DNA of 35,319 bases from a virus, in IMG/VR virus record IMGVR_UViG_3300011339_000243; one strand, given 5' to 3'. Positions 21,511-28,233 of this stretch are shown one piece after another. The position numbers and the translations under genes are program-made. Positions within the stretch are counted from its first letter, which is position 1. Each line of letters opens with the position of its first letter. The notes below the pieces were generated by a model, which was not told the origin of the DNA, did no database searches, and saw only the letters and a program-made list of their open reading frames with translations.

Positions 21511-21891
21511 CTAGGATTTGCTTTCTATGTCTTCAGCATCTATAGGGTTATCCCCTATGACTACACCGCCAATGCCAGAAATAGTTATGTTAACTGCTGA
21601 CCTTTGCTTACCTTCTTTTTCAAACAAAGAAACAGGAAGCATCCGATCCATACAAAGTTTGATAGCAGCCATTTGAGCAGGGTGTTCGTCATTCATGGCA
21701 ATCTCAACTGCCTTGTGAACAACATTAGCACCTGCACTTTTGATTAATAGGTCTTTGAGTTCTTTGACTTGTTGTTGTTCAGTCTTAGGCAAAACAAGAG
21801 ATTGAGGGTTATCAGCATACTTCCTCAAGGTCATAGCACCAGAACCCTTTGGGCGACCTCTTGTTTTCTTGAAGCTATCTATCACGTTCAT
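21511..21891 (-). CDS. Putative terminase small subunit (126 aa from the ATG at 21891)
   Basis: First gene of the late operon. It has a basic N-terminus KKTRGRPKGSG and a helical core. The track ORF extends to a GTG at 21987; I prefer the first ATG (MNVIDSF...). Confidence 0.5.
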   Translation of the reverse strand: MNVIDSFKKTRGRPKGSGAMTLRKYADNPQSLVLPKTEQQQVKELKDLLIKSAGANVVHKAVEIAMNDEHPAQMAAIKLCMDRMLPVSLFEKEGKQRSAVNITISGIGGVVIGDNPIDAEDIESKS

Positions 21892-21979
21892 CTTTTGTCC
21901 AGTTGTGGGAAGAAGTTGTTGTTCGGTCTGACAACCCAGACAGTCGGCGATTGCAGGACTCAATGCCTTGCCATAGCGA

Positions 21980-21999
21980 ACCAACACGGCTGGAGACTG
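21980..21999. repeat. 20-nt direct repeat ACCAACACGGCTGGAGACTG, copy A
   Basis: Exact second copy at 22131-22150 (151-bp spacing). An 18-nt overlapping match occurs at 24686-24703. Confidence 0.9.
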
Positions 22000-22130
22000 C
22001 CTTGCAAGTAGGCTCTAATTTCGGCGAACCACAATCCCCATGCGTGTAGGTTGTTGGTGACCAGCGTTGCGACCTACGGGTTTGCAGACCCACCCGATCA
22101 GGTATCTGGCGTACAGTTTCGTTACTTGAC

Positions 22131-22150
22131 ACCAACACGGCTGGAGACTG
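22131..22150. repeat. 20-nt direct repeat ACCAACACGGCTGGAGACTG, copy B
   Basis: Identical to 21980-21999. Both copies are followed about 35 nt later by CCATGCGT. Confidence 0.9.
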
Positions 22151-22612
22151 TTGCGCTACCCCAGTAGTCCCTAGAGTCAATCTCCATGCGTCTTGGAAGT
22201 TAGCGCACACTTTACATCAGAATCAGATTCTTGTATAGTGGTGACAAACGGGGGCATCACCCACCCCTCTATGCGGTTGAGCCGACCAAGTAGGATAAAC
22301 GTAGTGAACCATGTAGTTCTCAAGTAAAGCAACAGACTTGAACGGGGCTAGTAGCGTGGAGTAGTGATCTGACAGTCACCACTAACTTAGCATAAACGAG
22401 AGGCTCTCCTTTAAAAAGGATTCACCCACCACGGGTGACATTCCTATTTGTCTTCTTCCTTCAACCAGATAGCCTTTGTTAGTGTTAAACACTTAGATTG
22501 GCTTTTTCAGTGCGGAGGAGGCTGCCACAATATTACAGACACACGACCACCCCCTCCCCCTATCGAAGTAAGCACTCACTTACAAGTAAGCACTAACTAA
22601 CACTAGATGCAA

Positions 22613-22629
22613 ATGAGAATCATTCTCAT
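22613..22629. promoter_or_regulatory. Perfect 17-bp palindrome ATGAGAAT-C-ATTCTCAT (Fur-box-like 7-1-7 operator)
   Basis: The core TGAGAATCATTCTCA differs from the TGATAAT-N-ATTATCA Fur 7-1-7 consensus only at one symmetric position per arm. It is flanked by direct CTAGATG repeats. Confidence 0.6.
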
Positions 22630-22666
22630 CTAGATGTTTGTATGTACTAACGTAGGGTAAATCTAA

Positions 22667-22683
22667 ATGAGAATCATTCGCAA
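22667..22683. promoter_or_regulatory. Second, imperfect copy of the palindrome (ATGAGAATCATTCGCAA)
   Basis: 15/17 identical to the 22613 site and 54 bp downstream of it. A third half-site CATTCTCAT lies at 22726-22734. Confidence 0.5.
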
Positions 22684-22909
22684 ATAGAAGGGATGCAGCA
22701 TCATTCATGTACTGCGAATACAAACCATTCTCATCTAAACAAAACTATCGGGTTACACTTTTCAATAGACTATATATATGGGCAAGATTGGTGCAGAGTG
22801 TTTACTAACTTCCCTTGATTGGTGCATGATTTCACCATATGAAATGACTTGCACCATGTTGGTGATTCCACATTATGAAATTCTATATAAATCAATGGGT
22901 TAGTAGTGT

Positions 22910-22939
22910 CTGACAATTGGCATAGAACGTGCATAGTAT
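22910..22939 (+). promoter_or_regulatory. Candidate sigma70-type early-left promoter (CTGACA - 18 nt - TAGTAT)
   Basis: Hexamers read by eye about 45 nt upstream of the first early ATG (22982). Spacing is slightly long and the match imperfect. Confidence 0.35.
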
Positions 22940-22981
22940 TTATTGTCCAAAGTCGGGCAGTCACTTTAAGAGGCGTTCAGA

Positions 22982-23560
22982 ATGACACACATACAAACCC
23001 GTGAACAATGGCTCTCACAAGCAACCTCAGAGCTTCGTGGCCTGTTTAAACAGCATGGCGTTGACTTACCTCATGAGGTTCGCTCATCATGCGGCTTCCC
23101 TTCAAAATCAGCCCTCAGTGCTAAGAACCGCAGAATCGGTGAGTGCTGGTCTGCCCGAGCCTCAGCCGACAGTCACGCAGAGATTTTCATCTCACCTACC
23201 ATCAGCGACTCAATGCGGGTTCTCGATATTCTCGCTCATGAGCTTGTCCATGCTTGTCACCCGAACGATGGCCACGGTTCTAAGTTCGGCAAAACGGCTC
23301 GCGCCATCGGCTTAGAGGGTAAGCTGACAGCAACCACGGCTGGCCCTGAGTTCAAAGTATGGGCAGAACCCGTTCTGGCTCGGCTCGGCGTTTACCCTCA
23401 TGCTGACCTGATACCATCGAACGCTCAAAAGAAACAGACCACGCGCCTGTTGAAATGTGTCTGCCGTGATTGTGGTTACACTGTCCGCGTGGCTGGTAAG
23501 TGGCTCACTGAGATGGGCGCGCCTCACTGCCCTGACCACGGCGAGATGGACAGCGTTTAA
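22982..23560 (+). CDS. SprT-like zinc metalloprotease-domain protein with C-terminal zinc ribbon (192 aa)
   Basis: HExxH motif in ILAHELVHACHPNDGHG and a C-terminal CVCRDCG...HCPDHG. RBS AAGAGG lies upstream. It is the first gene of the early-left operon. Confidence 0.7.
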   Translation: MTHIQTREQWLSQATSELRGLFKQHGVDLPHEVRSSCGFPSKSALSAKNRRIGECWSARASADSHAEIFISPTISDSMRVLDILAHELVHACHPNDGHGSKFGKTARAIGLEGKLTATTAGPEFKVWAEPVLARLGVYPHADLIPSNAQKKQTTRLLKCVCRDCGYTVRVAGKWLTEMGAPHCPDHGEMDSV

Positions 23561-25275: not shown

Positions 25276-25442
25276 CGCAAACTCAAGCACTGACCCAAGC
25301 CCTGATTTTGGCAATAACTGCGCCAGATGATGAAAAGGCACAGATGGCGATAGATTTATCTATTGAGCTTGCAATGCGTTTAAACGCTGTGGATGTTGAA
25401 AAGTGCAAAGCAAATGCGTTGCTAATTTTGGGGACAAAATGA
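25272..25442 (+). CDS. Small hypothetical protein (56 aa), not in the ORF track
   Basis: Hand-translated MTQTQALTQALILAITAPDDEKAQMAIDLSIELAMRLNAVDVEKCKANALLILGTK. It has an ATGA overlap with the upstream stop. Confidence 0.5.
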   Translation: MTQTQALTQALILAITAPDDEKAQMAIDLSIELAMRLNAVDVEKCKANALLILGTK

Positions 25443-25510
25443 TTTATGCCACTGTTGCCCTACTGCTTAGAATAATTTTCAGAAAATAAGTTAGTAAACA
25501 CTAACATTCA

Positions 25511-25535
25511 GCCCGCCTAGTGCGGGTTTTTCTTT
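25511..25535 (+). terminator. Intrinsic terminator of the early-left operon, between convergent operons
   Basis: GCCCGC-CTAGT-GCGGGT followed by TTTTCTTT. Confidence 0.7.
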
Positions 25536-27052: not shown

Positions 27053-27822
27053 TTCAACTCCAAAAAGTTTGACGCTTCAATAATTGGTTTTCTATCGTTT
27101 TCAGGCCATTTCTCGCCAGTCATTTCTTCCCATCGTTTTCGCTTCAATTCTTGGTCACGCTCAAAAAATGACTTATTTGTTTGTTTTGCAGAAATATGCT
27201 CAATTTTGGGTTGAAACCACTCTGCTTTGAATGATTGCCAATTTCGCAACACAGTTTCTTTTAAAGCGTCTTCAAGGGAAAACCCTGCTTTATCGGCTTC
27301 TTTCTGAATTCCATCAATGACCAACTGCGTGACCTGTGCTTTCTTGGTCTTTCGATGTTTGACAAAATCATCCCATACTGATGATGAAACGCCGTCAGGC
27401 GTAGCAACGACAGTTGCTTTATCTTTAATTGGTTTATGGTTATTGGTTATTGGTTCTTGGTTATTGGTTGCTATTGGGGGCGCATTAGGGGGGCTATTAG
27501 CCTCCCCATTGCTATCCTTATGCCATCGCTTTGCCGCACCTTTTTTCCCATCCTCTGAAAACTTGCGGTATTTGGCAATTTCCTCATCAGCACGGGGATT
27601 TACAAAGCCTTTTTCAGTTGAGACAAAGAACTCATTAAGTACAGTCAATACTTCTTGTTCGTTGTCCCGCATTCCTATTTGTCTGGCTATATCACGCTGT
27701 TTAATAGGTACTTCGTGTAAATAATAATGGTCAAGCAATCGCCTGAAAGCCAAGTCTTCTATAAGACTCAAATGATGTGTGTGGGACTTGTAGTCGCCAA
27801 TATGGAACTGATAAAAATGCAT
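27049..27822 (-). CDS. DUF1376 (YdaU-like) domain protein, putative replication initiator/organiser (257 aa)
   Basis: The N-terminus MHFYQFHIGDYKSHTHHLSLIEDLAFRRLLDHYY is the DUF1376 signature. It is ATGA-coupled to the P-like gene. Confidence 0.7.
   Translation of the reverse strand: MHFYQFHIGDYKSHTHHLSLIEDLAFRRLLDHYYLHEVPIKQRDIARQIGMRDNEQEVLTVLNEFFVSTEKGFVNPRADEEIAKYRKFSEDGKKGAAKRWHKDSNGEANSPPNAPPIATNNQEPITNNHKPIKDKATVVATPDGVSSSVWDDFVKHRKTKKAQVTQLVIDGIQKEADKAGFSLEDALKETVLRNWQSFKAEWFQPKIEHISAKQTNKSFFERDQELKRKRWEEMTGEKWPENDRKPIIEASNFLELK
27430..27471. repeat. Six tandem heptamers TGGTT(A/C/T)N inside the DUF1376 gene
   Basis: TGGTTTA TGGTTAT TGGTTAT TGGTTCT TGGTTAT TGGTTGC, read directly. 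They encode the linker PPIATNNQEPITNNHKPI on the minus strand. Confidence 0.85.
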
Positions 27823-27927
27823 AACAACCTTACTTCATTGGTCATCTTCACAGGATGAAACATTGGCAGGACGGTGAAGAATCGTCTTTTCGGGTTGCAC
27901 TCCCTAGCCACGTTTCGCATGACTATA

Positions 27928-28101
27928 TCATTTCTTTGCAAACTCTGCTTCTCTTTTCTTGCGCTGCTCAATCGCATTTGCAAGTAGTTTCCGCAACCAC
28001 ATTGCCCCTCCCATATTCTGAAATTCATCCTTTAATGCCTGAGTAACCCTCACGGCAATCTGAATCTGAGTACCTGTAATCTCTGATGGCGGTCTTGGCA
28101 T
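27928..28101 (-). CDS. Putative ribbon-helix-helix-type regulator (57 aa), not in the ORF track
   Basis: Hand translation gives MPRPPSEITGTQIQIAVRVTQALKDEFQNMGGAMWLRKLLANAIEQRKKREAEFAKK. The strand-helix-helix pattern and position as first gene at a divergent promoter region fit the call. The RBS is weak. Confidence 0.45.
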   Translation of the reverse strand: MPRPPSEITGTQIQIAVRVTQALKDEFQNMGGAMWLRKLLANAIEQRKKREAEFAKK

Positions 28102-28233
28102 TTTGTCTTCTGTTGGTTAAAAGAAACGAATTGTTGGCTTGTGTCTAACATTACACAATTAGGGAATGTCCTAGTGTCAGACAGAATATATTATGTCATA
28201 CACTACGCTTCCCAACAACTTGAAAGGTGTCCA

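Follow-up and report, generated by a model that had tools for sequence, protein, structure and literature searches.

The control region of the phage genome in IMG/VR virus record IMGVR_UViG_3300011339_000243 (35,319 nucleotides, analysed over its whole length and hereafter called the window) contains repeated palindromes that, to judge by their sequence, are genuine boxes of the host iron regulator Fur. Their identity is strongly supported and Fur binding to them is predicted; through them, the iron status of the host probably feeds into phage gene control. We base the identification on four lines of evidence, namely independent position weight matrices (PWMs), identical cores in published operators, the iron-gene context of the same sequence elsewhere and a fixed position in related phages. 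All four agree with the preliminary description, which had called the palindromes Fur-box-like from the letters of the window alone. The elements concerned are as follows.

22612-22630, no strand: Fur box 1, AATGAGAATCATTCTCATC, with a perfect 17-bp palindrome at 22613-22629
22666-22684, no strand: Fur box 2, AATGAGAATCATTCGCAAA
22713-22735, no strand: box 3, degenerate or split, TGCGAAT-ACAAACC-ATTCTCA, with an intact right half
22586-22739, plus strand: three tandem units of about 50 nt, 54 and 51 nt apart from start to start

The palindrome of box 1, ATGAGAATCATTCTCAT, is of the 8-1-8 type, and that of box 2 is ATGAGAATCATTCGCAA at 22667-22683 (15/17), whose TGAGAAT-C-ATTCGCA form was found again in many relatives. 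The right part of box 3 (22726-22734) reads CATTCTCAT, and an inverted half, TGCGAAT (22713-22719), stands ahead of its ATTCTCA with a 7-nt spacer; as a binding site on its own, box 3 is an uncertain candidate. Box centres are 54 bp and then 51 bp apart, and each unit of about 50 nt has an 'S' element (GTAAGCACTAAC-like) ahead of its Fur box, a structure repeated in the relatives L160, L130, L089, L091 and L133. In terms of repeats, a 49-nt unit occurs three times (family D1; 100/73/61 % identity), and there is also a repeat family D4. The 15-nt core of box 1, TGAGAAT-C-ATTCTCA, matches TGATAAT-N-ATTATCA at 13/15 positions, and the 19-mer at 22609-22627 matches the classical E. coli 19-mer GATAATGATAATCATTATC at 15/19. 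Within the window, this core occurs with no or one mismatch only at boxes 1 and 2. By our arithmetic, about 0.5 lone perfect 8-1-8 palindromes are expected by chance in 35 kb, so that such a palindrome by itself is not rare; the combination of features is far beyond chance. The perfect palindrome, the second copy, the third half-site, the two match counts and the spacing of roughly five turns had all been reported correctly in the preliminary description. Its label of an early control region was right in part, as the boxes do lie in a control region, which is divergent and separates the late (TerS) from the early operon.

Comparison with boxes of known function gave high scores. Relative to the X. 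campestris consensus AATGAgAATcATTctCATT, which derives from nine genes experimentally found to be repressed by Fur and iron (PMC1790865), box 1 matches at 18/19 and box 2 at 16/19 positions. We then used a PWM trained on nine published X. campestris Fur boxes, which themselves score 17.0-23.7 bits. The three best positions in the 35-kb window were the three boxes, with 24.8 bits (22612), 17.2 bits (22666) and 14.5 bits (22717-22735), and box 1 outscored every natural training site. Over 300 simulated 35-kb sequences, the best score was 12.1 bits on average and 20.3 bits at most, which leaves box 1 above the whole simulated background. A second PWM trained on 16 published A. baumannii sites also placed box 1 (21.1 bits) and box 2 (17.4 bits) at the top of the window. 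Moreover, identical cores are found in the E. faecalis Fur operators TGAGAATGATTCTCA and TGAGAACGATTCTCA, where operators of this type belong to feoAB, fhu and EF3082 and a fur mutant derepresses 5-18 times (PMC6056675), and the same core is present in the Burkholderia/Paraburkholderia box (orbS / phmS) ...GCGAATCATTCTC (PMC10991261). The same cores also recur in predicted A. baumannii Fur boxes of a published list, upstream of genes up-regulated at low iron. The symmetric T->G / A->C change noted earlier is present, but boxes of Xanthomonas, Burkholderia and Enterococcus normally have this form; judged by these comparisons, G/C at positions 4 and 12 is an ordinary variant and no deviation. 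The hexamers follow an F-F-x-R layout, GCAAAT-GAGAAT-C-ATTCTC at 22609-22627, with at least three NAT(A/T)AT-like hexamers.

The genomic surroundings of the sequence elsewhere point in the same direction. Exact copies of AATGMGAATSATTCKCATT in metagenome contigs (29-70 % GC) have iron genes as neighbours: the 52 adjoining open reading frames (ORFs) include 11 with a TonB-receptor Plug, 4 Fe3+-type binding proteins and 2 FTR1, besides single cases of Iron_transport, ZnuA, PepSY_TM and ferritin. We regard it as likely, with good though not full confidence, that host Fur binds these sites in vivo.

The position and variation of the boxes were examined in related phages. TerS, the SprT-like protein and Sak of the window each retrieved many IMG/VR contigs with 58-99 % identity, and their control hubs share three landmarks with the window.

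22550-22560, plus strand: C-run CCCCCTCCCCC, a landmark of the whole family, immediately to the left of S repeats and boxes
22566-22601, plus strand: tandem 18-nt S repeats AAGTAAGCACTCACTTAC / AAGTAAGCACTAACTAAC, a second repeated motif flanking the boxes
22692-22702, no strand: GATGCAGCATC palindrome, core of the conserved TAGGGGyGATGyAsCAT

Nearly all relatives have a single C-run per locus, and its strand never changes. To its right follow 2-7 S-type (or GGGTTTACCC-type) repeats in direct orientation, a variable cassette, the TAGGGGyGATGyAsCAT element and then a promoter module, of which there are several kinds. One to three TG[A/C]GAAT-N-ATTC[T/G]CA copies make up the variable cassette in about half of the relatives. 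In 104 unique related loci (700 kb), each of the 71 PWM matches of at least 14 bits fell 0-200 nt to the right of the C-run, with no match located elsewhere; at least one was present in 51 of these loci. The GATGCAGCATC element is present in almost all relatives, boxed or boxless, and the box cassette shuffles independently of the modules on either side. The cassette, an optional module, is present in about half of this phage family.

The variation of the boxes among relatives follows Fur rules. Half-sites include TGAGAAT, TGCGAAT, TGATAAT, TGAGAAC and TAAGAAT, and a few further relatives have classical GATAAT arrays at the box position. For example, GATAAT-type hexamer arrays read GAGAATGATAATGAGAACGATTCGC in L101/L114 and AATGATAATGATAATG in L110/L122, a relative of 53 % GC (L162) has AATGCGAATCATTCTCATT at the equivalent position, and longer arrays such as GAGAAT-GATAAT-GAGAAC-G-ATTCGC also exist. 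Combinations of half-sites were as frequent as expected for independent halves (C/G, 12 versus 11.6 expected; mixed, 53 versus 53.8 expected), which fits a dimeric protein site and not RNA pairing.

The window looks like the whole genome, about 35 kb, of a tailed phage. No DNA similarity to GenBank phages was detected for the box region or for 23 kb of the window, and no annotated relative was found among them. The minus strand carries all packaging, structural and lysis genes; the late operon begins with TerS (~21891), runs leftward and continues over the window ends as far as the lysis genes at 35120-33854. The boxes fall within the only large non-coding region of the phage, 1.09 kb long (21892-22981), between this leftward late operon and a rightward early operon. 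As the late genes run leftward from TerS, the late promoter must fall in this region. The genes on its two sides are the following.

21511-21891, minus strand: terminase small subunit gene (terS), the first late gene; relatives align from residue 21-29
22982-23560, plus strand: SprT-like protein gene, the first early gene; PF10263, phrog_6361

The real start of TerS is probably Met33 of the listed ORF; HNH/EndoVII and terminase large subunit (TerL) genes come after it. Farther right lie a minus-strand replication operon with an O-like initiator and a plus-strand recombination operon. For most early genes, no function could be recognised. Domain searches of the early genes found no integrase, no repressor-like helix-turn-helix (HTH) protein and no Fur-like protein, in line with the earlier statement that no integrase is recognisable. 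Rfam gave no match at the boxes and only chance-level matches in 21850-23000, and no tRNA genes were found in the window. The best TerL match is in a beta-proteobacterial metagenome-assembled genome (MAG), and a prophage-like match is in a Burkholderiales MAG. Host hints from genome contigs come from MAGs only and are taxonomically inconsistent, with Betaproteobacteria/Burkholderiales the best of them; the hosts are likely Betaproteobacteria, which use this type of box.

The same box is also carried by other phages. At least 120 IMG/VR stretches contain the exact 19-mer, and only 8 of the 137 boxes among the matches listed belong to this phage family. In several unrelated viral contigs, a consensus TTGACA-N17/18-TATAAT promoter and a GGCGCC start region precede the box, which covers about +4 to +22, a placement suggesting that many environmental phages use it as an operator. 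Some of these promoters appear to drive very short transcripts. The phages bearing the motif span 27-59 % GC, which a universal host protein fits better than a private phage repressor. More tentatively, since we would put this below an even chance, co-option of host Fur might be a widespread and undescribed phage strategy, in which a swappable iron-sensor cassette in the hub renders phage development, or a manipulation of host iron uptake through Fur titration, iron-gated in natural waters. As separate observations, several viral contigs (L420 with four copies, L502, L434, L391, L465, L469, L431 and L501) have repeated units of the form 'TTGACA-N17/18-TATAAT, GGCGCC, AAATGMGAATSATTCKCATTTGG', and two metagenome loci (L266 and L260) have promoter-GGCGCC-box units as well. 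A terminator follows 50-80 nt downstream of some units, perhaps marking a small RNA, and those of L420 are followed by parS-like TGTTTCACGTGAAACA sites.

How the boxes could act was considered from the promoters around them. The nearest rightward promoter, of the sigma-54 type, precedes the first early gene by about 50 nt.

22918-22933, plus strand: sigma-54-type -24/-12 promoter TGGCATAGAACGTGCA, TGGCAT-N5-GTGCA, the sole exact match in the window

Allowing a variable spacer, GG-N10-GC was found at the same place in 24 of 95 unique related regions, with one match elsewhere in 1.5 Mb. Upstream of it, an NtrC-like TGCAC-N6-GGTG site, TGCACCATGTTGGTGAT, is located at 22850-22866, and its offset to the sigma-54-type element is fixed at -68/-71 in 14 of the 24. 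The phage encodes no enhancer-binding protein, and the early genes may thus depend on one of the host. In the L011 sister clade, a leftward TTCACA-N17-AAGAAT promoter (9/12) takes its -10 from the box (21 of 70 boxes); TerS starts there about 67 nt to the left of the C-run and the boxes lie 65-120 nt to its right. On promoter prediction, this geometry is the classic Fur repression layout, facing the late operon. A PvdS/OrbS iron-starvation promoter, TAAAT-N16-CGT, over box 2 of the window was considered and rejected, as by eye only TAAAT-N16-CGC is present.

We propose that in an iron-replete host Fur-Fe2+ would occupy, and probably spread over, roughly 22605-22740 (an array of about 130 bp), and that this occupancy would alter transcription starting in or crossing the late/early hub. 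Most likely, Fur would either repress a weak promoter that reads leftward into the late operon or keep the S-element factor from its sites, and iron limitation would lift the effect. Upstream activation of the early promoter by the boxes may be an alternative. Fur binding, the sign of the effect and the target promoter are what we infer here, and the mechanism, which is partly resolved, is the weak part of the account. Taken as stated, the model of host Fur boxes gating hub transcription is one towards which we lean with modest confidence.

Several points weigh against this model. On neither strand of the window was a sigma-70-like promoter of at least 9/12 found over the boxes, the boxes are about 185-310 nt upstream of the sigma-54-type early promoter, and in other relatives the sigma-70 promoters are about 80-120 nt downstream of the last box. 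With no overlapping promoter and the early promoters at a distance, the classic occlusion geometry is absent from the window. About 47 % of relatives have no boxes, with other short-repeat cassettes in the same slot, and the boxes must accordingly be dispensable. The Fur specificity of the host is assumed from conservation across bacteria. Boxes that are stronger than natural host sites and lack a promoter also fit a decoy role, and exact copies in unrelated phages could mean a shared phage-borne binder missed by the domain searches. The preliminary description had suggested that host iron status gates early or late transcription; the Fur-box part of this suggestion stands, and the gating is plausible only, given that no promoter overlaps the boxes in the window and about half of the relatives are boxless.

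That another protein uses the sites, either a phage-encoded regulator or a different host regulator with Fur-like specificity that switches early/late transcription independently of iron, would be consistent with palindromic 15-17-bp sites in a divergent control region, which typify phage repressor operators. Such a binder could hide among the functionally unrecognisable early genes, and several exact copies at strong promoters in unrelated phages are compatible with it. Lambda-type CI/Cro arrays are the obvious parallel, being repeated palindromes of this size in a divergent phage control region. Nevertheless, CI/Cro sites are adjacent, with a spacing of 3-7 bp, whereas those of the window are 51-54 bp or about five helical turns apart, have no regulator gene beside them and share their sequence with a host operator. 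No HTH or repressor-like protein was detected in domain searches, and no phage protein was found to co-vary with the boxes. Specifically, no early-region protein cluster separated 12 box-positive from 7 box-negative long loci (a small sample), and in 113 short loci (+/-4 kb) no cluster with a window protein strictly tracked the boxes, the strongest associations being clade markers without a window member. In addition, no such site occurs in the divergent region near a small ribbon-helix-helix (RHH)-like gene (28028-28193), the variants, GATAAT arrays among them, parallel the degeneracy of Fur, and the spread of the motif over phages of 27-59 % GC suits a universal host factor better. We consider this explanation unlikely, and its narrower form raised earlier, a phage repressor converged on the Fur sequence, found no support, with neither a candidate protein nor co-occurrence.

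Multicopy Fur boxes derepress the Fur regulon, which is the basis of the FURTA method. Replicating phage genomes with two to three near-consensus boxes each could similarly serve as a decoy, in which Fur does bind but is titrated so that iron uptake by the host is derepressed. The score of box 1 above all nine natural X. campestris sites, the inconsistent promoter geometry in the window and the clade, and the optional cassette that shuffles independently of its flanking modules would all suit such a role. On the other hand, the boxes are always in the same slot of the control hub, although this hub is the only large non-coding region. The overlap of the box with a leftward -10 in the L011 clade and its precise placement at +4 to +22 of consensus promoters in other phages argue for operator function, and titration as the purpose of the boxes is, in our estimate, quite improbable.

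A structural role is very improbable. The boxes lie in non-coding sequence beside terS and the HNH/EndoVII gene and near the universally conserved C-run, and several contigs end near the box region, which might be expected if they were terminase (cosB- or pac-like) or replication-origin sites close to a genome end marked by the C-run. However, TerS and the boxes do not co-vary: L082 (TerS 97 % identical), L084, L086 and L090 (94-98 %) have no boxes, while clades with a TerS of about 58 % identity have them, and a TerS binding site (cosB) was rejected on both counts. Contig ends are not at a single fixed position, the bacterial contexts of the motif are iron genes, and an origin at the boxes was rejected because the likely origin is elsewhere, at six ATTGGTT copies in the O-like gene (27428-27469). 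Finally, an RNA hairpin, a part of a small ORF or a chance repeat is scarcely credible: the conserved promoter at 22211-22239 may drive transcription through the region, the box of other phages stands just after the transcription start, and a minus-strand ORF (22580-22723) spans the boxes, but the loop of the stem would have only 1-3 nt, arm combinations with C.U or A.G mismatches amount to 41 % (metagenome) and 56 % (viral) as independence predicts, the ORF is not conserved and box spacings in relatives (24, 31, 36, 46, 54 and 73-75 nt) follow no multiple-of-three rule, and chance is excluded by the PWM simulation and the exclusive placement in 104 related loci.

With host Fur as the preferred reader of the boxes, the arrangement can be compared with known systems. 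Bacterial TGAGAAT-N-ATTCTCA Fur boxes share with those of the phage the 7-1-7 or 19-21-bp palindrome, the tolerated variants and the F-F-x-R layout (GCAAAT GAGAAT C ATTCTC), and the phage scores are within or above the range of validated sites. They differ in that the bacterial boxes are upstream of iron-uptake genes and the phage boxes are not, and in that the latter come in two to three copies 51-54 bp apart, interleaved with another repeat, and have no recognisable overlapping -35/-10 in the window. Stx1 prophages carry the Fur-repressed stx1 promoter, and iron regulation of stx1 is also mentioned in reviews. There, too, a host Fur site on a phage genome makes phage-borne DNA iron-responsive, but what the box regulates is a moron, an accessory toxin gene that has a promoter of its own, whereas the boxes described here lie in the phage's own late/early hub and are conserved across a family without a toxin gene. 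LexA boxes are used by CTXphi, coliphage 186 (tum) and GIL01. These phages likewise carry the operator of a host repressor instead of a sensor of their own, with the difference that their signal is DNA damage; here it would be iron, through Fur, with no recognisable lysogeny module. A literature search for Fur boxes in phage control regions found none beyond stx1, and we found no report in the searchable literature of a Fur-box cassette in the late/early hub of a phage family without recognisable lysogeny genes.

Iron limits growth in many natural waters, and links between phages and iron are debated. If our reading is true, host iron status would be able to set the timing or outcome of infection through a conserved set of Fur operators that an abundant family of uncultured phages carries in its core control region, and the same operator at strong promoters of other phages would offer them the same route. 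Alongside LexA, CRP and IHF, Fur would then be one of the few global regulators of the host that are read by phages directly.

Other cassettes occupy the slot of the boxes in some relatives (L082, L086, L090, L127, L143 and L144; L060 and L068), for example three units of about 24 nt, TATAtG-N5-GACAGCATAATG, and an NrdR-box-like CACTATATATAGTG lies over the -10 of the early promoter in some. Sites for different host regulators may be exchanged in the control hub. The S element is probably the predicted site of a DNA-binding protein, possibly encoded by the phage. Further S-type sites are at 22640-22651, 22798-22809 and 25490-25505, in forms that include GTATGTACTAAC and the palindrome GTTAGTAAACACTAAC; the motif alternates with the Fur boxes, recurs close to the sigma-54 upstream region and is found again immediately ahead of the early-operon terminator. 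In one sister clade, GGGTTTACCC repeats replace the S elements.

Left of the boxes, the non-coding region holds one more conserved promoter.

22211-22239, plus strand: conserved promoter TTTACA-17-TATAGT, pointing away from terS

It is followed by a highly conserved RNA-like element of about 300 nt (~22246-22560, plus strand) that ends at the C-run, with compensatory changes in 12 of 41 predicted pairs and conserved loops, e.g., CUGACA, and without an Rfam match. Alternative cassettes, one with an HNH gene, take its slot in some relatives, and it is absent in the L011 sister clade; a new phage non-coding RNA or a long leader is possible. The C-run is preceded by a conserved GGAGGAGG...CACAAATATTTACA, and its possible pairing partners are a G-rich stretch upstream, with G.U pairs confined to the minus-strand RNA, or else the 5' GGGG in the RNA-like element. 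Several contigs end about 30-115 nt from the C-run, the ends clustering loosely at no single position. The C-run is possibly a cos site, part of a late leader or the 3' strand of an RNA helix. A tandem duplication of about 150 nt (21980-22330), with a 20-nt exact repeat at 21980/22131 and a 24-nt repeat at 22032/22178 (families D3 and D5), copies the sequence just upstream of the 22211 promoter.

Elsewhere in the window, a second conserved 'site' at 25467 (TTAGAATAATTTTCA) was rejected as an operator. Its likeness to Fur boxes stems from the coding sequence of a 16-codon ORF, MIYATVALLLRIIFRK, in which relatives differ by a synonymous change. This ORF (25440-25490, plus strand) overlaps the stop of the upstream gene (ATGA), precedes a terminator at ~25512-25535 and is conserved in relatives. 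The six ATTGGTT iterons are within the O-like/DUF1376 initiator gene (minus strand), and the array is likely a replication origin. An int-alpA RNA match (27845-27914, minus strand) scored 37.1 bits against a gathering threshold of 35.8 and lies between a small RHH-like ORF (27928-28101, minus strand) and the initiator gene.

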